Program-made: the position numbers and the translations under genes | Part shown: one piece after another, positions 3,540 to 36,090 of the stretch | Layout: each line of letters starts with the position of its first letter | Position numbering within the stretch: the stretch's first letter is position 1 | Notes under the pieces: generated by a model | Database searches by the model: none | The model's input: only the letters and a program-made list of their open reading frames with translations | What the model was told of the DNA's origin: nothing | Virus record (IMG/VR): IMGVR_UViG_3300032283_001024 | DNA length: 64,000 bases | DNA from: an uncultured virus (IMG/VR IMGVR_UViG_3300032283_001024) | Taxonomy: Duplodnaviria; Heunggongvirae; Uroviricota; Caudoviricetes | Direction: 5' to 3' (one strand)

Positions 3540-6215
3540 CTAATATTCCAACTGCAGGTTACCTCTGGTCATAAGTCCATTACAGAGCCACACCAAGGCG
3601 TCGACACAGTCGTCGTGAGAGCTGACGCCAAAGTTGATGATCTCATCAGTCAAGGCTTGGAACTTTCGGTACTTGTTAAACACGATTTTACGTTGTTCAA
3701 ACAAGCCCATAATGCCCCTGAAACGTGCAACCTTGTCGCCACGGAATCCCTTAACCGCATGCCAATTCAAATTGTAAAGACCGTGCTCACCCAGGCAGAT
3801 ACGTTTGAAATCTGCCTCCAAGGATGCTTGGTACGCCACTGCCTCTGACCAGATATCAATGTTGCTTCCACTGGCATGATATTGATCTCCGTCTTTGTGT
3901 ACAATTCCCCACTCGTAGCACATTTCCATCAAAGATTCAAGCTTCTCCAGGTTGCCCATAATCCTGATCCTCTTACAGTCAATAATGTGAATCTTGTTAT
4001 TTACACGCCCGCCAAGGACCATTACGGTGTAGTCGTTTCTTTCTCTAACGCCAGCAGACAAGTCAACGCCAATCCCCAGAGCGTCGAATTCAGTAGAAAT
4101 CTGTCCTCTAACGATCAGATCAGGTGAGAGCGAAAGTTCGCTCGTCTGTACAATTTGATTCTGATACTGAAAACTAAAGCTAATAGGAGCTTGGCGGCGG
4201 CGATCCTGAAGGTATTCAAGCGACCACATCTCTGGCCAGTAAGAAATCTCGTCTCCGTGATCATTAACAATGATTGCGGATTGAACGATTTGAACCCAGT
4301 CATTTGCAGGTGTGAATGTTGTGCTGTGAATGTCGTCATGACGAAATCTTGTGCCCAGGCAGATTGCTCTTCCTCCTTCGAACATTGTTGGAACAATAAC
4401 TGAGTTCCAGTTATCTTCCATCATTTGACGTATATCTTTATTTTTGATGTCGTCAGAACTTTTGATTACATCGTCAAGGATGCAAAGATGTGAACGCTTA
4501 GAAGTCACTGCGCCCTTCAAACCTGCACAACACACAGTAAATTCTTCTTCACCCGTCGACTTAATGCCTGCAAACTTCCAGTCAATGCTCCAGTACTCAT
4601 TGGAGTTGATACCCTTGGCAATTTTCACAGTAGGGAAGATTTCCCTGTAGATCTTGCTTTCTTCGATAATACGTTTGATAGCAGCACTCTTGGGACGAGC
4701 AACATCAACCGTGTAAGAAATGTAGAGGATTTTTAGAGGTTTCTTTGCTACGGCATGATTACCAATTGCCCAAGCAGTATACAAACCAAGAATCGTGCTC
4801 TTTGCACTGTTTTTTGAAACAATGTAGTCTTTAGTTAGAAAGGTGTGTTTTTCGTGGGAGACAGTTATGCACCTTACTTTCTCCAGGGGGGCCGGTTCGA
4901 TCCTGACAATAGATCGACAAGGTAGGTACTTAGTGCAGGGCGTGTATGAGTGCGCTTTACGTTCCAGGTAAAAAGGCTTGATCGCTGCTGGTAACTTGAT
5001 TCCTACTTTCCAAGAAGCGTTTTTAGTCCTTACTTTTTCTCCAGTCGGTCCGCTGTATTGATTGTATTGCGGAGCGTTGATTGTTGCTACGCCGCCTAAA
5101 GACTGCACCAACTCAACTACGTCTAAAACCAATTGGTATGAAATACTGCAAAATGAGATTCCCCCTCCTGTAGGTGACTTGTTGCTCTTAGCTACAGTAC
5201 CATCAGTGTCTAACAAACCCTGCAAAAGTGCAGTTCTGTCAGCAATACAAGCAATCTTGTAGGCTGAAGGGATAAACTTGTCTTTCGACCCTTTCTCTTG
5301 CAGACCAAGATGCCGCAAGGACTCCAGAACTTGGTTAGGTTTACCTTTGCTCCTGCTGCTTTTAACTATGTTGTAGGAATACTTAGATCCTGAAACACTA
5401 ACTAATTCATGGCCAGCAGGTAGAGATTTTCTGCAACGTTCAATAATGTCATTATCGGCTGAAGTGAAACGAACTCCAGATTTCTCGGACAGTCCACCGT
5501 CACCCAGTAATGCTCCTAGCAAATAAGGATCTAGAGGTAGTTTTGATTCAGGGTACTGCACTGGTGCGGTAATCGGAATCTGGTAACGTGCATAACCCCT
5601 TGGGTCTAACCATGGAGTTTCTCCTTCTTCGCAAGTTTCTGTGATCCTTTTTACGCCTGTGCGCCAGTTTCCCTTTGTACCTTTGGTTTTTTGAGTTCTG
5701 AGCTCATTCAAGGTCATTAGGCGCCAGGTATTTTTCGAATCCGTGCCGACTCTTCTTACCTTCCAAAGGTGTTGATCGTCGCAAATAACAGAGGATCCAT
5801 CAGAGAAAATTAGGTTCCATGTTGGGCTTTCTTCGTAATCTTGTATGTCTGTTACTTCAGTTACGCTGCCGTCTTCAGCAAAGACGTGATTTCCTACAGA
5901 AAGTTCACCGATAGCTTGCCACCCTTGCGGAGTAGCTACTGGCATGGACGCCGCCAGTGGTCCCCTAGGAGCGAGGATGTCCATGTTGGGGCCGCCGATC
6001 CCAACCAAGCACTCGGTATCTTGCTCAGTACAAAGGTAGCGGTGCCATTGTTTATGGTGCGCTGCTGGTGGTTTGTCACCCACAACGTCGCAAAAATAGC
6101 CAAAATCTGTTCTTGCGCGATCAATGTCGATCGAGCTTGATTTCTTTACTACTTGTTGTTTCGCCGCAGCTCGCGCTGTCCTACGATAAACCGAGTAGAG
6201 AGATGTGCCTGCCAC
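3540..6215 (-). CDS. terL: terminase large subunit (intein-containing)
   Basis: Walker A APRG|SAKST split by an intein; Walker B LCILDD; GTRFRHDD; nuclease motifs GVDL and HDDCVDA; GTG start. Confidence 0.95.
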   Translation of the reverse strand: MAGTSLYSVYRRTARAAAKQQVVKKSSSIDIDRARTDFGYFCDVVGDKPPAAHHKQWHRYLCTEQDTECLVGIGGPNMDILAPRGPLAASMPVATPQGWQAIGELSVGNHVFAEDGSVTEVTDIQDYEESPTWNLIFSDGSSVICDDQHLWKVRRVGTDSKNTWRLMTLNELRTQKTKGTKGNWRTGVKRITETCEEGETPWLDPRGYARYQIPITAPVQYPESKLPLDPYLLGALLGDGGLSEKSGVRFTSADNDIIERCRKSLPAGHELVSVSGSKYSYNIVKSSRSKGKPNQVLESLRHLGLQEKGSKDKFIPSAYKIACIADRTALLQGLLDTDGTVAKSNKSPTGGGISFCSISYQLVLDVVELVQSLGGVATINAPQYNQYSGPTGEKVRTKNASWKVGIKLPAAIKPFYLERKAHSYTPCTKYLPCRSIVRIEPAPLEKVRCITVSHEKHTFLTKDYIVSKNSAKSTILGLYTAWAIGNHAVAKKPLKILYISYTVDVARPKSAAIKRIIEESKIYREIFPTVKIAKGINSNEYWSIDWKFAGIKSTGEEEFTVCCAGLKGAVTSKRSHLCILDDVIKSSDDIKNKDIRQMMEDNWNSVIVPTMFEGGRAICLGTRFRHDDIHSTTFTPANDWVQIVQSAIIVNDHGDEISYWPEMWSLEYLQDRRRQAPISFSFQYQNQIVQTSELSLSPDLIVRGQISTEFDALGIGVDLSAGVRERNDYTVMVLGGRVNNKIHIIDCKRIRIMGNLEKLESLMEMCYEWGIVHKDGDQYHASGSNIDIWSEAVAYQASLEADFKRICLGEHGLYNLNWHAVKGFRGDKVARFRGIMGLFEQRKIVFNKYRKFQALTDEIINFGVSSHDDCVDALVWLCNGLMTRGNLQLEY
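4809..5960 (-). mobile_element. class 3-type intein with LAGLIDADG homing endonuclease, 384 aa
   Basis: block A PLAASMPVATPQGW, block B CDDQHLW, LAGLIDADG motifs LLGALLGDGG and LLQGLLDTDG, block F VRCITV, C-terminus IVSKN then Ser+1. Confidence 0.93.
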
Positions 6216-12756: not shown

Positions 12757-15700
12757 TCAGAAGAGAGCTAGCTGTTGGGTATTGCTTTGTTCCAGTGCTC
12801 CTCTCAATGCAGATTGCAAACTACGGCCGGTGTGTGTTGCATTCAAAGCATTTACTGTAGCTTGTAATTGTGAAGTTGCTTTGCTCCGATTAAGACGTTG
12901 TCTGGTAGTAGCTGGTCCTGGCATGACCCCAGCTTCCAACTGACGTGGGTAGTAATCAGCAAGCCAATCAGCTTCCGGTACAGCTGCAGGTTTAGAAACG
13001 GGGCGGAACAGTTCGGCAGCAGCCTGCTGCCGCAGAGGAGCTTCAACGGTTTGAGGCTCAGCCTGACTACTGTCAACTACTTGACGCATTTCATCTAGAA
13101 TCTCTTTAAAATTTCCTTGCGGAGCACTTTTTAAGATTTTTTGGCGCCACTGTTTTGTCGCTGGGTCTGCCTTTTCGTTCGTAGAATATGCGGCGTAGGA
13201 ACCAGGAGCAGCGGTTTCTTGAATTTGTTTACGTGCTCGCTCAGCAGCTGCAATTCGCAGTGCTCCTTTAGTTGGGGCCTGCATGGGACCGTACGTTTCC
13301 CTGAAGCGCGTTCCTAGTCCAGGATGTGAACCACCTCCTGCTGGGTACATTGCTTCTTCAGCATAGATAAGGCCTTCAGGTGTAATCCTTTCAGGCTCCA
13401 TTCCTTTAATAATTGAAGCCTCTTCCCCAAAAGACTCAGGATCAATTTGCAAATAGTTAATGCCTGAATAGCTTCTATCGCTTTCGCCTAAGAGCCTAGA
13501 AGGTGTCCTGCTGCTTTCACCCCGCCCAACGCCGCCGACTTGCCTGCTTCCAATAGAAGATGCGCGGCGAATGTTAAGCAATTCTAAAGGAGTAAGGGCT
13601 TTGTTCTCTGGAACTTGAACCATTCCGACTAGTTCACCAGTAAGTTGATTAATAGAAGGAGATAATTTAGTTCCGAGCTGCATTTCTTCAGGAATAGAGT
13701 AAACATACTGATTCTCTTTAGCAGCCTGCAGCGCATTCTGAGCGTTTTGTAAATCCCCATACGAGCGAGAAAGAGCGTTCTTGTCTGCATTGGATAATGC
13801 TGCAAAGTCTGCTGCACGAAGCTGCGTTGTTGCTGGTAAACCTGCCCTTGCAAGTACACCTGCTTTTGTGTTGCTGTGTACAGTTTGCGCCCCCAAGAGA
13901 AGGTTTTCCAGATTTTCTACCTGGGTTAAATCAGAACCTGGGAAAGCTTCAACTGCTTTGAAGGGCCTGAAGAAAGATTTTGTTGGGACCTGTTCTCCAC
14001 CTGGCAGAGTTATGTTGATAGGGACGGCGTTAGACGCAGCAGCATTCAACACACCAGGATCTTGCGTCACGCCATAGAGATCCCAAGCTTTCTTAGAAGC
14101 TGCAGAAAGAGGTGTAGGAGGAAAGAACACATCTGTGTTGCCAGGATCAACAGAACCTCCACGTGTTACAACCCGTGGGTCAATACCGCTGGCCGCTCCC
14201 CACGCTGGGTTGTATCGTTCTCCAGTGGCAAGAGAAGAGTAGGGGCCTTCAGGGTTTACTCCGGTGGCCTCCAACGTTGCAAGTGCGGCTTCTACATCTC
14301 TGGCGCCGGCAATCCGCTGAACAGGGTAAGATCGAGTCGGATCGCTGGCGTAAGTTTCTCCTTCACCTAAAAGCCTCTGTGTCAATGGTGAACGAGACTT
14401 AAAAGTAATTGGCTGTTCTTGTTGTTGTGTATAAGGAACTTCCACAGACTCTGTCTCTCCAGAAGGCCCATTTTTGACAAACAAGTTACCTTTTCCTGTC
14501 AAACTAAACGCCCTTTCTTGGTGTCGAACAGGATTCAAGGCCGCACCGCTGCGTGCTGTCAGCACAGTTGATGGAAAGTGAATAGCTCCAGTTGATGGCT
14601 CTACTCCGTAAAGAGATGCACCTTGTGTTTTCAAGAAACTTTCTACCTTGCCACTTGTAGTTTCTGGTGTTGCAAAAGAAGGATCTAACGCTGCAGTTTG
14701 TTCGGAAACTACTGCAGCCTCAGTAGGGGCAGACAAGAAACTTTCAACGCGCTGCCCAACACTAGGAAAAGCTTCAACGTAACCAGGAACGCTTGTTGCC
14801 GCGTTCCGGATCTCACCAGTGGTGGGATCAACAAGCTGTTCTCCACGAAGATCTGCAAGACGTGCAGCCCTTACTTCAGGAGAGGCGTACTTAGTAGCGA
14901 ACTCAAAACTCTTGCCCTGAGTAGTTCTGGGATCAACAACTGTTGGAGCGTACTCTTCATCCACAGGAATAGGCATGAACCTTCCCCCTTCACCCCTTTG
15001 TTGCACAGGAAGCGGATTTTTTTCTAAAACACTTGCAATTACATCTGCTCTACTGGGACGAGGGCCTGAAGTTTGGCTAGACGCCAGGGACTCGGTTTCG
15101 GTTACTTCTTTTGGAGAATACGACTCACTGGTAGGAGGAAGGTAAAGTTTTCTTTCATCCCCTGCGGGTGCTCCTTTTGCGGCCTGGATTTCTTGCGTTG
15201 CAACATTGACTCTATTCTGGTTGTAGCGTTCAGCTGTAGTTGGCGGAGTCACATCACCAGAATTTACGATCACATCGGCGTCAACATACCTGCCGCCTCC
15301 TAACCCCCTAAGGAAGGACGAAGTGCGCTCACCAATATTTCTGGCGTTTTCCTTTGCAAACGTTCCTGCGTTACTGAGAGCCTGCTGTCCTCCAGGAGTT
15401 TGAGTCAGTGCGTACCCTGCAGCTACTGCGCCAGCACCGAGGGCAACTTTTCCTACCGTGCTCAGCAAAGAATTCTGTTGACGGCGTTCAGCAGCGTTTT
15501 CTTCTTCTTGGTTTTGGAAGTGTTCCGACGTCAAGGTCGAATCCAGGGTTCCGGCTACCTTGGGCGCAGAGTTGTCAGGTGTTACAGGGGAGTTAAAAAG
15601 AGAATTTGGAGCAGAGTTCTGTACGGAAACAGGTTGATCGTACATGATTGTGCCGCCAACACGACCACCTGGAGCGGACGAAGCGGCTTTTCCAACATTT

Positions 15701-15813
15701 TTGACGAATTCGTAAGCATGCGGAGCCGCATCAAACTTTTCTTGGGTCGTTTGAGGATATTTATTGCCGGTTGCACGTGCCCAAAGAGCAAAATCTGCTG
15801 GAGATACGGGCAT
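12757..15813 (-). CDS. large low-complexity protein (1018 aa), putative internal virion protein
   Basis: long ORF; first gene of the minus-strand block. Confidence 0.7.
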   Translation of the reverse strand: MPVSPADFALWARATGNKYPQTTQEKFDAAPHAYEFVKNVGKAASSAPGGRVGGTIMYDQPVSVQNSAPNSLFNSPVTPDNSAPKVAGTLDSTLTSEHFQNQEEENAAERRQQNSLLSTVGKVALGAGAVAAGYALTQTPGGQQALSNAGTFAKENARNIGERTSSFLRGLGGGRYVDADVIVNSGDVTPPTTAERYNQNRVNVATQEIQAAKGAPAGDERKLYLPPTSESYSPKEVTETESLASSQTSGPRPSRADVIASVLEKNPLPVQQRGEGGRFMPIPVDEEYAPTVVDPRTTQGKSFEFATKYASPEVRAARLADLRGEQLVDPTTGEIRNAATSVPGYVEAFPSVGQRVESFLSAPTEAAVVSEQTAALDPSFATPETTSGKVESFLKTQGASLYGVEPSTGAIHFPSTVLTARSGAALNPVRHQERAFSLTGKGNLFVKNGPSGETESVEVPYTQQQEQPITFKSRSPLTQRLLGEGETYASDPTRSYPVQRIAGARDVEAALATLEATGVNPEGPYSSLATGERYNPAWGAASGIDPRVVTRGGSVDPGNTDVFFPPTPLSAASKKAWDLYGVTQDPGVLNAAASNAVPINITLPGGEQVPTKSFFRPFKAVEAFPGSDLTQVENLENLLLGAQTVHSNTKAGVLARAGLPATTQLRAADFAALSNADKNALSRSYGDLQNAQNALQAAKENQYVYSIPEEMQLGTKLSPSINQLTGELVGMVQVPENKALTPLELLNIRRASSIGSRQVGGVGRGESSRTPSRLLGESDRSYSGINYLQIDPESFGEEASIIKGMEPERITPEGLIYAEEAMYPAGGGSHPGLGTRFRETYGPMQAPTKGALRIAAAERARKQIQETAAPGSYAAYSTNEKADPATKQWRQKILKSAPQGNFKEILDEMRQVVDSSQAEPQTVEAPLRQQAAAELFRPVSKPAAVPEADWLADYYPRQLEAGVMPGPATTRQRLNRSKATSQLQATVNALNATHTGRSLQSALRGALEQSNTQQLALF

Positions 15814-16040
15814 TTTGACTTACTTCTTCGATATATTCGATTTTAATCTCTCTCAACACGCTATTTTCCCCTAACTGGCCTAGAAAAAGCCCTTTTTGGG
15901 GTAAAAATTCCGGTAGCAATCAAGCTAACTCAGCTGCCAGAAGGCCCCGAAAGGAAAAAAAGAAAGGGGGCGCCTGCGCTGATGAGTTTGAACAGCCTGC
16001 AGAGGTAGTTCCTCGCGGTTGTGTTCCATCGGTTCAGTCC
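15814..16040. promoter_or_regulatory. divergent intergenic region between late (minus) and early (plus) blocks
   Basis: strand switch, homopolymer tracts, first copy of the 20-bp motif at 15991-16010. Confidence 0.55.
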
Positions 16041-16041
16041 A

Positions 16042-16251
16042 ATGTTCGTCCTTACCTACACCAAGTCCAGCGCCGACGATAAGTGGCACGAGGAAGGTTA
16101 CTTCTCCACCTGGGAAGGTGTGGTCTGCTTCGTTGAGAAGCGCGGAATCACCAACGACCTGCTCAAAGTTGAGTGGGTTCCCGTGGAGATTGTTGATCAG
16201 CCACAGATCTCGTTCTATGACTACAGCAACTGCACAGAAGTGCCGTTCTGA
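16042..16251 (+). CDS. hypothetical early protein
   Basis: ATG 16042; TGA stop abuts the hammerhead. Confidence 0.6.
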   Translation: MFVLTYTKSSADDKWHEEGYFSTWEGVVCFVEKRGITNDLLKVEWVPVEIVDQPQISFYDYSNCTEVPF

Positions 16252-16313
16252 GGCGAAACCGGGGTGCGATCCCCGGTCCAGCAGCTTGACATGCTGCTGC
16301 TGACGAGCCTGTC
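16251..16313 (+). ncRNA. type II hammerhead ribozyme
   Basis: GGC-GAAA-CCGGGG/CCCCGG-UC^-CAGCAGC/GCUGCUG-CUGACGA-GCC; all core nucleotides present, three perfect stems, GUC cleavage triplet ending at 16278. Confidence 0.92.
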
Positions 16314-16328
16314 TTCGTTAGTGCAAGG

Positions 16329-16348
16329 AACAGCCGTAAGAAGCAGTT
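16329..16348 (+). promoter_or_regulatory. AACARCC-N3-AGARGTAGTT motif copy (others at 15991, 16909, 17272, 18222, 19353, 20346)
   Basis: 20-nt motif repeated at least 7 times in early intergenic regions, several inside TGCA..GAAC/GTTCTTTGCA hairpins. Confidence 0.8.
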
Positions 16349-16397
16349 CTTTGTAGTTTTGCCTCCAGCGGAATAGGCCCCGCACCGCTACAGTACC

Positions 16398-16643
16398 ATG
16401 GAATTCACCGCCACCGCCCCTTCTGCTGCCGCTGCTCCTGCTCCCCAGCAACATTTCGTAATCTTCCCTGAGGTTATGCCTCAGGACGACCTCATTGAGG
16501 TTGAGTTCGTTGAGAACAACCCTAATCAAACCCTGGTTAAGGCCCTAGTGGTCGGAACCGGCATCGCAATCGTTGCTGCGTGGTGCAGCCCTACAGGCAA
16601 AAGCCTGCGGAACAAGCTTGCTGAGGCGATTAAAGCCAACTGA
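16398..16643 (+). CDS. hypothetical membrane protein
   Basis: single hydrophobic helix, ATG start. Confidence 0.6.
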   Translation: MEFTATAPSAAAAPAPQQHFVIFPEVMPQDDLIEVEFVENNPNQTLVKALVVGTGIAIVAAWCSPTGKSLRNKLAEAIKAN

Positions 16644-16658
16644 GGCCAAATATAACTG

Positions 16659-16686
16659 GCCGGGTGCAATTCCCGGCTTATTTTTT
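16659..16686 (+). terminator. T-loop hairpin followed by U-tract (intrinsic terminator-like)
   Basis: GCCGGG-TGCAATT-CCCGGC-TTATTTTTT. Confidence 0.6.
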
Positions 16687-16960
16687 ACATTAAAGTGTAA
16701 TTTACGTACAAAAGTGAACACATATGCCCCTTAAAAGCCTTGCGGCAGAAGGGAAGACGTGAGAAAGGCGCCAGATGTCTAGTTGACAGAATTTTTTGGA
16801 ATTCAGCCTGTGGAAAAGTATTTGAGGCAAAATATATCAATTAGATTGAAAATAAGTTTTAAGTGCGCTGTATTAACTGCGTTATGCAATTCCGCAACAC
16901 TCTGTAATAACAACCAGTAGAAGTAGTTCTTTGCATCATTGTCCTCTGAAATTTACTCCA

Positions 16961-17221
16961 ATGTCCACTGTTACCTGCCAATACGTGAACCAGAAGGTAG
17001 AAGGGGACATTCCTTCCCAAGGATCTCTTCGCTGGGCGCTCCTTTGCCCAGCAATACGTGCTGCACGTGGCATTTATCCAGAAACGCTGCTTACTTGCCC
17101 GGTGCGTCCAGAAATGCCGCATCATTATGGGTGCGTTAACGGAATGCGCTCTGAGTATGCCGAAAGGTATGACTCATTCAATGGAGCAGGAAGTTGGTCT
17201 GCTCTTTGTTCTGAGCTGTAG
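16961..17221 (+). CDS. hypothetical early protein
   Basis: ATG ~33 nt downstream of the 20-bp motif. Confidence 0.55.
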   Translation: MSTVTCQYVNQKVEGDIPSQGSLRWALLCPAIRAARGIYPETLLTCPVRPEMPHHYGCVNGMRSEYAERYDSFNGAGSWSALCSEL

Positions 17222-17261
17222 TACTCCGTAAGAAGGGCTAGGTGCAACTCCTAGCCTCAGA
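17210..17261 (+). ncRNA. tRNA top-half-like element
   Basis: TCTGAG/CTCAGA closing stem plus CTAGG-TGCAACT-CCTAG T-arm, followed by TATTGC. Confidence 0.6.
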
Positions 17262-17323
17262 TATTGCAAGGAACAGCCGTTAGAGGTAGTTCTTTGCACC
17301 AATGCACACACCACCCTCGTCAC

Positions 17324-17584
17324 ATGACTGAGACTTCCGTGTACCGCCGCATTCAGCAGCTTAGGCTGCTTGCCAGGAGGGATAGCTCCCTCCGCTCGCC
17401 CCAAGTAGACCAGGACCTGGAACAGTTCAGGCTGCAGTTCATTCAGGCGTTTGAGGCTTGGATGGATGGCATGAAGGAACTGGACTTAACACCCTTCGTT
17501 GTAACAGCTGACAAGATCATCACTAGCAACAAAGAGTTGCTTCGCTGGCTCCATAAGGAGCTGGACAAAGATCTAGATCGCTGA
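17324..17584 (+). CDS. hypothetical early protein
   Basis: ATG after the conserved hairpin leader. Confidence 0.6.
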   Translation: MTETSVYRRIQQLRLLARRDSSLRSPQVDQDLEQFRLQFIQAFEAWMDGMKELDLTPFVVTADKIITSNKELLRWLHKELDKDLDR

Positions 17585-17624
17585 GTCCAGGCGTGATGCT
17601 GGGGGATCGAATCCCCCACTCAGC
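17580..17624 (+). ncRNA. tRNA top-half-like element (7-bp acceptor, 5-bp T-stem, 7-nt T-loop)
   Basis: GCTGAGT/ACTCAGC plus GGGGG-ATCGAAT-CCCCC, followed by TATTGC. Confidence 0.7.
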
Positions 17625-17668
17625 TATTGCCCTCCAGGGATATGGGCACCCTACAACAGGAGAATCCT

Positions 17669-17827
17669 GTGCACCTCAAGACATCTGTAACCGCTCACTT
17701 TACTTTCAGTGAAGAAGAGCTGTCAGACCTTGCTGGCTTACTAGAGACGTCTGATATCACTGTAAACCTCAGCAATTTCCTGACCGATCTGCGCCATGAG
17801 TTGAGGTTACTTCTTCAAGACAAGTAA
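17669..17827 (+). CDS. small hypothetical protein
   Basis: AGGAG SD then GTG. Confidence 0.5.
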   Translation: MHLKTSVTAHFTFSEEELSDLAGLLETSDITVNLSNFLTDLRHELRLLLQDK

Positions 17828-17866
17828 GAAGTAGTTCTTTTCAACATGTCCAATTGCACCTAGACA

Positions 17867-18169
17867 ATGCAAACGCACCACGAAACCAACCCTCTTCCCG
17901 AAGGTTACACTCACGTCGATCGTAAGCTTGTCGGGTGGGATCACCCGAATCTGGTAATCACAAGACTCCGCCTTGTGTCTGACCCAGGATATCCGTGGTG
18001 GGACGTAAGTTACTGCCACGGAGAAGTAAGTGGTCAACCTGTAAGGGTCCTGCTGCCTTTTGATCAGCTACCTAAGAAGAACATGTTTGGTGCCCTCTAC
18101 AAGGAAGCCAAGATGTCAGGTTGCTACATCCGAGGTCTAGAGCCAAGCAACATCAGTACTCTTTGCTGA
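17867..18169 (+). CDS. hypothetical early protein
   Basis: 100-aa ORF, ATG start. Confidence 0.65.
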   Translation: MQTHHETNPLPEGYTHVDRKLVGWDHPNLVITRLRLVSDPGYPWWDVSYCHGEVSGQPVRVLLPFDQLPKKNMFGALYKEAKMSGCYIRGLEPSNISTLC

Positions 18170-18211
18170 GTCCGTCAACACGGCACTGGGAGGTGTAAGT
18201 CCTCCCACAGC
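18165..18211 (+). ncRNA. tRNA top-half-like element
   Basis: GCTGAG/CACAGC, inner CCGT/ACGG hairpin, GGAGG-TGTAAGT-CCTCC T-arm, followed by TATTGC. Confidence 0.6.
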
Positions 18212-18273
18212 TATTGCAGAGAACAGCCGTAAGAGGTAGTTCTTTGCATCAATGTCCCACCGCACCTCTTCAC

Positions 18274-19363
18274 ATGCTCGGACGCACCACTCTACTTCTC
18301 GGCGCTGGTCTAATCGGAGTGTTTACACTCAAGAAAGAGACTAAAGATCGTATCAGAAATAAGGTATCTGCCGGGCTGGTAAAGATGGCTGATGCTGTTA
18401 AGCCCAAGGAAGAAGTAGTTCCTGATCAAAACGAGTTCATTCGGACTCTGTTTCAACTGAATTGATCACCTGTCCTGACTGTCACCATTCCTTCGCTCTT
18501 TCATCATGGAAGTTTTTGTCTACCAGGCGTCTGAACATGATGCGTGGGTAATCACGGTTCGCCGTGACTTCGCTGAGATGCTACGAGTTGATCCTGCTCG
18601 TGGGGTATCCCGATATGAGCGCTACGAAGCGCCAATCGAGAAGATTCGAATTGGGATCGAAACCCTCCGCAAAGAAGGATATACCTTCTGCGGAGCAATC
18701 GATCTCAAGCTTCGGAAATTGATCGAAGCATGAGCAATTTAATTGCAACCGCCACAGCTGTTGTAACAGTTGTTTTGGTTACTACCGCAATCAAGGTAGC
18801 CAGAATCTCCGATAACGGAGAAGTTATAAAAAACTGCAAAGAACTGTATAACATTGTTTATACAGAAGATTTGTTTGGATCGAGAGCACGCTGCATTTCC
18901 AACATGCAGAAGTTTGGTCCAGTGTTCAACCCAACCCGCATGGAGGATTGATGGAAACGTTCCTTGAGAAAGAAGATTTCATCTTTTTAGCAGCGCTTGC
19001 TAAAGAGAACGGAGTTGATTCTTGGCAGTTTGCCAAACAAATCATCAACCAAAGATTGGATGATTACCGAGACGAAATTCGGTATGCCCGGGTTCAAGAA
19101 CAAGAAGATCTTGCAGCTGCTGCAGTTGAAAAGATCGTAGAAGAACAACTCACGAAATCAATCTGATGCTCATCTATAACCCCAAGCAAGATCCCTGTGC
19201 ACGAATCACCTGGTATGGTGGTGACTCCACGATGCTCAGGTTCGAAATCCTGGAAGAATATGGCGACTGGCGTGTAATCAATTCCAAAACTCTTAGTGAG
19301 TTCCCCACTGATGTCAAGGAACTGTACCAAGAGATGCGGAACTACCACGAACAACAACCTTAA
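18274..19363 (+). other. cluster of five small hypothetical CDS (18274-18465, 18506-18733, 18730-18951, 18948-19166, 19166-19363)
   Basis: co-oriented, stop/start overlaps. Confidence 0.6.
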
Positions 19364-19435
19364 GAAGTAGTTCCCTACTTCAGTGGTCAACAGTAGCCTG
19401 ACCTTGGATGCTACCTACACACTTGCCACACCACC

Positions 19436-33859: not shown

Positions 33860-35578
33860 AACCCTGGCCTGGCTCCACCATTCCGCCGCCGTTCATGGCT
33901 CTGCATATTCCCAGGTGCTGTTGAACCTGCTGGAACGGGTCGAGGCGCTGGAGGCTGCTGAGAACTTGTGCCAGAAGGACGAAGACGCCGAACTGGCTGC
34001 CCCCACCCCCGAGGCTGCCACGGTGGCCACGGATGACGAGCTGTATCAGGTCGCCTACAGCATGCCTTTGTCTACTGAACAGGGGCGGCGTAGGCGCTGC
34101 TACGAACTGGGCCGCCAGCATGGTGCCGCCCAGTCCCCAGCAGCCCAGCCTGGCTGCATTGTTCGGGGATCAGACGCCGTAGTTACGGCTGAACTTGAAA
34201 AAATGGTTGAACTTGAAAAAGCAGCCGAAGCCCAGCCCGCCCAGCCCGCCCCGCCTGCCGGGGGGTTGGTGGAGAGGGTGGAGGCCGTTATTCGTCCCAG
34301 TATTCCTAGCGACGTTTACCGATACGAGGCCCGCGCCGCGATTCGTGAGGTGGCAGCGTGGTTCGACGCCAAGGGGCAGCACGGCTGCTCGCTGTGGCTG
34401 TTTGAGGAGGCCGACCAATGAGCACCCCCGACACCATTTTTCTTTGCGTTTTGGTTATTTGCCTGTCCTACGTCTTTACAAAACCATGACCACCCCCCTA
34501 AGACTCGCCGTGCTAGTTGCCCTGGCACTTATTCCGCTGCCTGCGCTAGCCCAATCCGTTGACTCTGAACAACATCAGAACGATCCGCCCCGCTGCACAC
34601 TCGGCCCAGCAGGGCCAGAGTTTCCGGAAGGAACGATGATGTTCACCTGCAGGCCATGCCGGGCCGGGGATGGCCAGCCATGACTGACCCCGACTTCCGC
34701 GCCCTTTGCGCTGAACTGTTGCAGCCGCTGGCTGAATACGACGGTGCCCATCCGTATCACGAGCACCGCGCTCTGATAACCCGCGCCCGCGCCGTCCTTG
34801 CCCGCTGGGGCCACCCCGCCACCCCACCAGCGCCCGAGCCGGGGGAGGTGGCGGAGTTGGTGGATTTGCTGCAGTGCGAGGCCAGGTGGAAAGAGGAGGT
34901 CTATGGCAACTGCGCCGTGATCACACCTGCAGAGCTTCGCCGCGTCGCCACCCTGCTCCAGCAGCTATCCGCGCCCGCCCCGGTGTTGATGCCGGTGCCA
35001 GTGAGTGAGCGGCTGCCGAAATATGGGGATTGCGATGCGGAGGGGAGGTGCTGGTGGTTCACGCCCCCCGCCTGCGGACCCCACAAGATTCGCCCGGGCT
35101 GGACCCTCGACTCGGAAGTGCTGGAAGGGGACAGCCACTGGCTCCCCGCCAGCGCCATTCCGCTGCCTAAGGCCGGGGAGGTGGAGGCATGACCACCCCC
35201 GACTTCCGCGCCCTGTGCGCTGAGCTGACAGACCGCCTTCAACACGCCATTACATCCGTGAATGCCGACTCCTATTACGGAGAGAACCGTGACGCTGTGG
35301 ACCGCGCCCGCGCCGCCCTGGCCGAGGCTTATGCTGCCGAAGCCAACAATCCACCGGAGGCGGCGGTGGTGCCAGTGGCGGTGAGTGAGCGGCTGCCGGG
35401 GGAGGGGGATTGCGATGCGGAGGGAAGGTGCTGGATCCATCAACCTCACCCCGCAACGCCTGAAACCCCTGAATGGCGACTGGCTCAAGCGAAGTACGCA
35501 AGCGTCAACTACGGCACAACGCATTGGGCCGCCGCCCACGCCATCCCGCTGCCCCAGGCCGGGGAGGTGGAGGGATGA
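33846..35578 (+). other. GC-rich modular paralog cluster (33846-34421, 34486-34683, 34680-35192, 35189-35578)
   Basis: repeated peptide blocks PDFRALCAEL and VSERLP..DCDAEGRCW..HW....IPLP; GGAGG SD and ATGA coupling. Confidence 0.7.
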
Positions 35579-36090
35579 GCGCTCCCCTGGACATCGTGAT
35601 TCGACCCCTGAATCAAGAAAACCTCTGCGCAGCGCAACGGTTGGTCGATGCAACTTTTCCCCACTACCCGTGGATGAACCGAAGGCTTTTCTTCTCTGTT
35701 TCTGATCCACAATTTCTTTATCGCTGGGCACTCTCAGTCGGTTGGCAAATCACTTCTTTGAGTGACTGGGTAGCTTTGGATGCTGATAATCGGGTTGTCG
35801 GGACTGTGGGAGTTTATACATACCGCAAAGATAACAACGAAGCCTGCTGGCTTTCCTGGTTCTGCGTCGATTCAAGCTTTCGTGGGAATGGTATTGGGAA
35901 AAAACTGCTTCAGTTTGCAATTCAACTAGCCCGTCAGGCCGGGAAAAAATATCTGCGCCTTTACACTTCTACACATCCATCCGAAGCAAACGCTCATGCC
36001 CTGTACTACAAGAAATTATTTAAGATCACAGGAAAGGAGTCAGAGCGCATCTATTTAGAGCTAGACCTATCGAAGGAGGTGCAACCATGA
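35575..36090 (+). CDS. GNAT-family N-acetyltransferase
   Basis: WFCVDSSFRGNGIGKKLL acetyl-CoA motif; NAHALYYKKLF. Confidence 0.85.
   Translation: MSAPLDIVIRPLNQENLCAAQRLVDATFPHYPWMNRRLFFSVSDPQFLYRWALSVGWQITSLSDWVALDADNRVVGTVGVYTYRKDNNEACWLSWFCVDSSFRGNGIGKKLLQFAIQLARQAGKKYLRLYTSTHPSEANAHALYYKKLFKITGKESERIYLELDLSKEVQP

Follow-up and report, generated by a model that had tools for sequence, protein, structure and literature searches.

Natural type II hammerhead ribozymes were described by Perreault et al. (2011; PMC3088659), often in the intergenic regions of phages and prophages; an initial annotation of the DNA analyzed here had noted that hammerheads are known in phages. According to that study, the majority of type II hammerheads form a pseudoknot of at least 4 bp in which loop I pairs with nucleotides immediately following stem II on its 3′ side, and mutation and rescue established that fast cleavage in 0.5 mM Mg2+ depends on this contact. 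In prophages, genes are often flanked by several hammerheads; such clusters cleaved polycistronic RNAs both in vitro and in vivo, and the authors suggested that they process long phage transcripts into mRNAs of gene length (Perreault et al. 2011). Cleavage in Desulfovibrio vulgaris has also been found for three type II hammerheads near phage-like genes (PMC8782182). Catalogues of hammerheads from bacteria and phages date back to 2011. Here, we describe a complete type II hammerhead at positions 16252-16313 (plus strand) of a 64,000-nucleotide (nt) stretch of DNA from an uncultured virus (IMG/VR record IMGVR_UViG_3300032283_001024), the whole of which is called the window below. The virus is an S-EIV1-like freshwater cyanophage, and the ribozyme directly follows the stop codon of a small open reading frame (ORF), gene 1, that opens a rightward cluster of probably early genes.

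In its setting, the locus resembles the PeSL cassettes of T4-type phages, short intergenic units made of a conserved stem-loop and a promoter-like repeat that lie on either side of small, functionally uncharacterized genes in an early region of high plasticity; breakpoints of ORF replacements fall inside the cassettes (Arbiol et al. 2010; PMC2839356). PeSLs combine a sigma-70 promoter with a terminator hairpin, whereas in the window a ribozyme takes the place of the hairpin, the accompanying intergenic repeat (D1) is not sigma-70-like in a consensus scan, and what is seen in the DNA are repeats and ORF-precise swaps. A further point of comparison is provided by RiboJ-type synthetic insulators, in which a hammerhead at a junction removes variable upstream RNA and leaves a hairpin-capped, uniform 5′ end. 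Those are engineered, derived from type III and placed after promoters, whereas the present element is a natural type II ribozyme after a stop codon, which may, by analogy, give the downstream message a similarly uniform, hairpin-capped 5′ end; insulation is here our proposal.

Among the papers listed in the literature searches, judged by title and abstract, no report was found of a hammerhead in a cyanophage or in the S-EIV1 lineage, or of a fixed position after the first gene. We regard the element as a new member of a known ribozyme type, scoring below the family cut-off, from a phage lineage for which we found no prior report; its interest lies in the regularities at the cassette boundary and the stop codon more than in the ribozyme as such.

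Architecture of the ribozyme

The ribozyme can be read directly from the sequence, with all of its parts on the plus strand. Its circular permutation is that of type II, with stems III and I as capped hairpins and stem II open. The TGA stop codon (16249-16251) of the ORF 16021/16042-16251 lies directly 5′ of the 5′ strand of stem II (GGC, 16252-16254; C16254 is C11.1), which was invariant in all 19 aligned relatives. Next come the core nucleotides G12, A13 and A14 (GAA, 16255-16257), invariant in relatives that had been collected with a pattern not specifying them, and the stem III hairpin (A-CCGGGG-ugcgau-CCCCGG-U, 16258-16277), which comprises 7 bp from A15.1 to U16.1 (−13.5 kcal/mol). C17 is C16278, and core geometry together with the invariance of U16.1 and C17 in the relatives predicts cleavage at the bond 16278/16279. 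The stem I hairpin (CAGCAGC-uugacau-GCUGCUG, 16279-16299) again has 7 bp (−11.3 kcal/mol) and is closed by the loop UUGACAU (16286-16292). It is followed by the core strand C3 U4 G5 A6 N7 G8 A9 (CUGACGA, 16300-16306), in which N7 alone varied among the 19 relatives, by the 3′ strand of stem II (GCC, 16307-16309; G16307 is G10.1), which pairs with GGC at 16252-16254, and by a 3′ tail (UGUC, 16310-16313), the 4-bp pseudoknot partner of GACA in loop I (16288-16291). Stem II thus has three or four pairs, the optional fourth joining A16251 of the stop codon to U16310. The cleavage triplet is GUC, and all core positions are canonical, including the pairs G10.1-C11.1 and A16258-U16277. For the 63-nt element, the hammerhead fold (−30.0 kcal/mol) and the minimum free energy (MFE) fold (−30.3 kcal/mol) were essentially equal.

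The initial annotation had proposed this type II topology, beginning at a stop codon and with a GUC cleavage site after 16278. Every coordinate it gave proved correct on direct reading, the TGA does abut the GGC of stem II, and both the canonical core and the comparative data below support the position of the cleavage site. Loop I also contains the letters TTGACA, and a −35 promoter box was considered at this place; it was rejected because a −10 box at a spacing of 16-18 nt is missing and the loop letters change in concert with those of the RNA tail.

Chance expectation and relation to the Rfam family

Using our own type II descriptor (CUGANGA, GAAA, an A..U-closed stem III of at least 4 bp, a non-G at position 17, stem I of at least 4 bp and stem II of at least 3 bp), we obtained one match in the window, with 4, 7 and 7 pairs, compared to 0.005 matches per shuffled window (200 shuffles). 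A leave-out covariance model was built from 19 hammerheads of other contigs, excluding the window and the loci retrieved by way of the neighbouring phage gene. With filters off, this model scored the window element at 70.8 bits (E = 3.8 × 10−17), with the runner-up at 15.3 bits. A chance origin of the element is excluded, and we regard it as very likely that it is a real, selected hammerhead. Searches for a second hammerhead with a relaxed descriptor and the covariance model with filters off returned only noise in the 64-kb window and in the remaining 18 kb of the genome (L215).

The initial annotation had suggested the Rfam hammerhead models as a check, and the outcome was mixed: Hammerhead_II (RF02276, clan CL00010) aligned the element end to end with 29.1 bits (E = 3.4 × 10−4 in a 271-nt search), but this lies below the curated gathering score of 37, which is the operational threshold of one model and no property of the RNA. 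Because of this cut-off, default annotation misses the element; on the whole window, Rfam reported no hammerhead either at the gathering threshold or at E ≤ 5. The element shares with RF02276 the core, the permutation, the short open stem II, a 4-bp loop I pseudoknot and the phage intergenic setting. Unlike the family consensus, in which a UGG loop pairs with CCA two nucleotides after stem II, its loop UUGACAU pairs with UGUC directly after GCC. Siblings with the same loop and tail were found above the cut-off (L147, 42.1 bits; L060, 41.0; L048, 38.8; L051, 38.0) as well as below it (L039, 35.9; L047, 32.2; L044, 32.0; L170, 30.3). Since these siblings straddle the cut-off, the window element is a divergent member of RF02276 and not a new class. 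The S-EIV1-like copies were not listed at E ≤ 1 in the RF02276 sibling search, and with default Rfam thresholds, an entire subgroup of type II hammerheads from cyanophages goes undetected.

Covariation and the loop I pseudoknot

Searching with loop I, CUGANGA, GCC and the tail as the only fixed parts of the pattern, we obtained 10 loci from viruses and 24 from metagenomes, representing 27 distinct segments. GGCGAAA, the UC site and complementary stems, all left unspecified in the pattern, were present in 26 of the 27. In an alignment of 19 sequences, 99.2% of the cells of the structure, pseudoknot included, were paired, compared to 30-45% in slid controls. Changes on both sides were seen in 14 of the 21 pairs of this alignment, comprising all 7 pairs of stem I and 5 of the 7 pairs of stem III (12/14 together). 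The covariation score was 0.579 against 0.171 in shuffles, none of the 500 shuffles reaching as high a value. The three pairs of stem II never vary and are therefore uninformative on covariation.

As the first set had been ascertained on the letters of the pseudoknot, a second scan was run in which the architecture was fixed while the three inner loop letters and the three tail letters were left free. All 19 distinct sequences recovered paired the pseudoknot at four of four positions, using the loop/tail combinations GGCA/UGCC (12 sequences), GACA/UGUC (4), GGUA/UACC (2) and GAGA/UCUC (1). Among at least 134 distinct viral type II hammerheads chosen by their core, loop I/tail helices of at least 5 bp were found in 35, compared to 11.7 in a control in which tails were dealt to other loops. 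The pseudoknot, which the initial annotation had read from the single sequence, is real and already described for the type II class.

Type II hammerheads with a GGC/GCC stem II were very common in the viral contigs L066-L214 (at least 149 loci, often several per contig). Other viral contigs (L231) carry several hammerhead copies with identical stems.

Placement at stop codons

Among copies homologous to the window element (class A), a reading frame of at least 40 codons ended −1 to +6 nt from the GGC of stem II in 24 of 25 loci, and these frames represented about 15 types of upstream ORF. The gap from class A ribozymes to the next start codon ranged from 8 to 144 nt, in contrast to the tight spacing at the stop codon. 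In the independent viral set chosen by core only, and among the matches listed there, a stop codon lay within −1 to +6 nt of the GGC in 99 of 136 cases (73%); 32 (24%) were at exactly 0, 11 overlapped as TAG-GC, and 14 were without such a frame. This abutment is a quantitative regularity of which we found no statement in the papers searched. The tight packing of phage genes may account for part of it.

A fixed boundary of an exchangeable gene slot

Comparison with close relatives placed the ribozyme at the edge of a slot in which whole ORFs are exchanged. Between the window and contig L050, identity is 94% over 15540-16046 and 91% over 16252-16816, but the intervening DNA is unrelated: from about 16047 to 16251, gene 1 is replaced in L050 by an unrelated ORF. 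The left junction falls in a shared start-codon context (UCCAAUGUU) and the right junction at the first G of the ribozyme. A similar exchange distinguishes L020 from L043, L054, L055 and L062, where identity extends to the 5′ edge of the ribozyme (L020 9505-9509) and resumes at the start codon of gene 1 (around 9712). Altogether, at least five unrelated ORFs occupy the gene 1 slot among close relatives. Contig L033 has only the ribozyme and about 35 nt in common with L045, L053 and L056. In contigs of this type, the ribozyme tail runs directly into CAGTTATTGCC, and the 35 nt between the ribozyme and the next ATG are too short to accommodate a separate promoter, implying co-transcription and processing there.

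The spacer that holds the ribozyme is built like others of the region. These consist of a stop codon, a stem-loop module, the motif CAGYTATTGC and the D1 repeat, and behind gene 1 the ribozyme stands in place of the stem-loop module. D1 is a 36-nt intergenic repeat (AACAGCC..GTAGTTC..; consensus approximately AACAGCCGTAAGAGGTAGTTCTTTGCA) with seven copies in 15991-19388, starting at 15991, 16329, 16909, 17272, 17817, 18222 and 19353 and located 30-83 nt upstream of start codons of small ORFs. The copy at 15991-16026 (plus strand), 5′ of gene 1, forms the conserved left flank of the gene 1 slot and is kept between the window and L050 up to the start codon. The copy at 16329-16364 (plus strand) lies directly downstream of the ribozyme, and D1 also follows the ribozyme in L020-type relatives. 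A consensus scan did not call D1 sigma-70-like; it is a candidate early promoter, operator or regulatory site.

Non-catalytic stem-loop modules were located at 17211-17262, 17580-17626 and 18164-18211 of the window and at 1092-1140 and 1849-1897 of L033. They begin at the stop codon (GCUGAG..) and end in CAGYUAUUGC, and their fold is a three-way junction that contains two inner hairpins (z about −2). Their outer stem includes the stop codon and changes from GCUG/CAGC in the window to ACUG/CAGU in L033. One inner hairpin, GGGGG-AUCGAAU-CCCCC, looks like a tRNA acceptor/T-arm minihelix; the 7-nt strand behind it is paired to the beginning of the module. The modules could be a processing signal. 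A known ribozyme or a tRNA-like gene was also considered for the modules at 17580-17626 and 18164-18211 and rejected, with no match to Rfam ribozyme families at E ≤ 10 and no ARAGORN call.

A conserved leader element (GCCTCCAGCGGAATAGGCCCCGCAC, 16361-16385, plus strand) is present upstream of gene 2 and occurs once in the window. In L033-type contigs, a leader element is repeated and follows the ribozyme. The version given as GCCUCCAGCGGAAUAGGC for the same window positions recurs there just before the Shine-Dalgarno sequence (L033 1136-1177 and 1528-1569), and its 5-bp stem changes from UGCCU/AGGCA to UGCCC/GGGCA between copies.

Distribution among related phages

The 1018-amino-acid protein encoded next to the small-ORF cluster was aligned with two homologues, yielding 17 related viral contig loci, for which the descriptor was widened to all three hammerhead topologies. 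Only type II matches were obtained, all on the strand of the small ORFs. Class A copies were found in five of the 17 loci (L020, L021, L026, L027 and L028), 451-503 nt upstream of the gene for the homologous protein; three of the 17 hold less than 500 nt upstream and could therefore not have shown one. The position after gene 1 is kept among relatives whose 1018-amino-acid protein is only about 40-54% identical.

A second group of hammerheads (class B) has different stems, a stem II of 4-6 bp and a location deeper in the operon. The descriptor found it in six contigs, always on the minus strand (L005 4209-4145, L020 7249-7182, L025 2966-2896, L026 6379-6313, L027 3723-3657 and L029 487-428). 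Class B follows a homologue of the window gene 18506-18733, flush with the stop codon, and is absent from the window and from L006, where the two genes overlap. Relative to these, the class B copy of L005 is cleanly inserted, a stretch of about 75 nt separating a stop codon from a start codon. Searching five related records with RF02276 gave no match, not even to the class B ribozyme of G003, so that this search is insensitive here; likewise, cmscan of L005 4050-4320 missed class B. Three contigs (L020, L026 and L027) carry two hammerheads on the same strand, 2.3-3.2 kb apart. In two other contigs, L039 and L060, four Rfam-detectable type II hammerheads each lie within about 3 kb, and every small gene is flanked by ribozymes.

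Proposed role and alternative explanations

We propose that the element probably acts as a functional type II hammerhead in a rightward, probably early transcription unit, where co-transcriptional cleavage would separate the mRNA of gene 1 from the downstream early mRNA. On balance, we also favor this separation or insulation of mRNAs as its main role. The direction of transcription, cleavage in vivo and the effect on mRNA fate are points that we infer. After transcription of the UGUC tail, all three stems (stem II with 3 bp) and the pseudoknot of loop I with the tail would form, and the folded RNA would cut itself after C16278 in the rightward transcript. The upstream product would be the mRNA of gene 1, which would extend 27 nt beyond the stop codon and have the stem III hairpin and a 2′,3′-cyclic phosphate at its 3′ end. 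The downstream product, carrying gene 2 and beyond, would have its 5′-OH on the first paired nucleotide of the stem I hairpin, with none left unpaired before it. As only the 3-bp stem II links the two, they should separate at once. A 3′ hairpin with a cyclic phosphate and a 5′-OH on a terminal hairpin would both be expected to slow exonucleolytic and 5′-end-dependent decay. The gene-slot boundary, the equivalence of the ribozyme with the stem-loop modules and the predicted product ends together suggest punctuation or insulation: any ORF in the gene 1 slot would receive the same 3′ end, and the downstream early mRNA the same 5′ end.

Several observations weigh against this proposal. One is the RF02276 score below the gathering cut-off. 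Another concerns folding: with 8 nt more of flanking sequence, both hairpins are retained in the predicted MFE structure, but stem II gives way to a pairing of GGCGAA with UUCGUU further downstream, a possible competing fold. No hammerhead was found in S-EIV1 or in the 67.7-kb relative G004 with the descriptor and the covariance model with filters off. In L022 and L023 (retrieved again as L032 and L036), the 5′ third of the ribozyme is replaced and GGCGAAA is lost. The 3′ two-thirds of this truncated copy (L032 1440-1530) are identical to the L026 copy, while GGCGAAAC and the 5′ strand of stem III are replaced by unrelated sequence with a GC hairpin of its own, which places a recombination junction inside the ribozyme. 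The ribozyme is dispensable for the lineage. Moreover, should the D1 copy at 16329 act as a promoter, gene 2 transcripts would have a 5′ end of their own, and only read-through RNA would be left for the ribozyme to trim. Among the sequence data listed, the locus occurs in DNA contigs and in no RNA sequencing run. Finally, the stability effects expected of terminal hairpins, 5′-OH and cyclic phosphate are carried over from bacterial mRNA decay in general.

These absences and truncations are what one would expect if the ribozyme were a passenger of mobile cassettes, persisting in short conserved intergenic units that, like PeSLs, spread and mediate ORF shuffling by homologous recombination, and cleaving with little effect on fitness. 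The clean class B insertion of L005, the restriction of common sequence in L033, L045, L053 and L056 to the ribozyme and about 35 nt, the ORF-swap breakpoints at the ribozyme edge and the identical-stem copies in other viral contigs (L231) fit such an explanation too. Nevertheless, we consider it unlikely: all core positions except N7 are kept, and helices and pseudoknot show compensatory changes across many lineages, which indicates purifying selection on the RNA fold and not just a patch of DNA homology. The preserved location behind gene 1 in relatives with a strongly diverged 1018-amino-acid protein argues in the same direction. Quite unlikely, in our view, is a translation-coupled switch, in which a terminating ribosome would lie over the 5′ strand of stem II, GAAA and the first part of stem III and so melt the fold of the ribozyme; cleavage would then report translation of gene 1 and tune the decay or expression of early mRNA. 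The abutment in 24/25 class A loci and in 99/136 of the listed core-only viral hammerheads, set against the loose start-codon gap of 8-144 nt, would be explained by such coupling, and the words "stop codon" occur nowhere in the main text of Perreault et al. (2011; PMC3088659). However, tight packing of co-directional phage genes could produce the same distribution of distances, the non-catalytic modules of the same phage also start at the stop codon, and the ribosome-footprint argument is a general one.

Two other explanations received very little credence. The first holds that two adjacent GC-rich hairpins, forming a terminator or 3′-end stabilizer, mimic a hammerhead core by chance. A sub-cut-off RF02276 score and ordinary hairpins in the same slot of neighbouring spacers could be read in this way, yet the reading is highly improbable given 0.005 chance matches per window, the score of the leave-out model (70.8 bits, E = 3.8 × 10−17) and the recurrence of unspecified GGCGAAA and UC site in 26/27 segments; furthermore, no T-run follows stem I, and a terminator scan makes no call. 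The other, for which we see almost no likelihood, is excision and circularization, whereby two hammerheads would free an RNA with 5′-OH and 2′,3′-cyclic phosphate ends for ligation by a host RtcB-type ligase. Perreault et al. (2011; PMC3088659) raised this possibility and report that spliced or circular products could not be detected. Pairs of same-strand hammerheads 2.3-3.2 kb apart do exist in L020, L026 and L027, but the window and the remaining 18 kb hold a single one.

Extended beyond this locus, the insulator proposal becomes more speculative. Possibly, type II hammerheads are natural gene-boundary insulators for which placement flush with the upstream stop codon is a functional rule; the S-EIV1-like ribozyme would be the fixed right-hand limit of the slot in which the first early gene is exchanged, and the terminating ribosome would gate cleavage. 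As a whole, we consider this rather unlikely. If it holds, a newly acquired early gene could be expressed and discarded without disturbing the downstream early programme. The relatives offer a natural experiment, as close phages differ only by the ORF upstream of a conserved ribozyme while others have none or a truncated one. The same phage has a non-catalytic module in an equivalent slot, so that what cleavage adds over a hairpin is testable.

Genomic context

The window is phage DNA, encoding a large terminase, a family A DNA polymerase, a primase and virion proteins. A virion protein of 753 amino acids was 54% identical to a protein of Synechococcus phage S-EIV1 (KJ410740), the sole match among GenBank phages. 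At the nucleotide level, positions 15800-17300 had no blastn match in GenBank phages. G001, the nearest record, overlaps the window at 36362-64000 and wraps to 1-123, indicating a circularly permuted genome of about 82 kb; the ribozyme locus lies outside this overlap.

The ribozyme is located 438 nt from the start of the leftward gene for the 1018-amino-acid protein (12757-15813), inside a rightward run of small ORFs without family matches (16.0-22.6 kb). These are probably early genes, judging from gene order and layout. The initial annotation had stated that the ribozyme separates the first two early genes; it does stand between the first two ORFs of the rightward cluster, while "early" derives from the gene order. 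Gene 1 (16042-16251, plus strand) encodes 69 amino acids from the ATG at 16042, the ORF finder having chosen the GTG at 16021, and constitutes the swappable cassette. Gene 2 (16398-16643, plus strand) encodes 81 amino acids with a hydrophobic C-terminal half and is kept in L005 (5441-5680), L020 (8591-8860) and L026 (8670-8939). A Pfam and PHROG scan of gene 1, gene 2, the 1018-amino-acid protein and 12 upstream ORFs of relatives gave no match above the cut-offs, DUF1651 and HicA appearing only below threshold. A protein search with gene 1 returned one weak, uninformative locus (L004).

We also noted two features elsewhere in the window. In the large terminase (3540-6215, minus strand, 891 amino acids), residues 86-347 or so also match primase, endonuclease and helicase-loader PHROGs, and may represent an inserted or fused domain, e.g. 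an intein or nuclease. A GC-rich island at 34001-36000 (0.616, compared to about 0.46 in its neighbours) contains overlapping ORFs on both strands.

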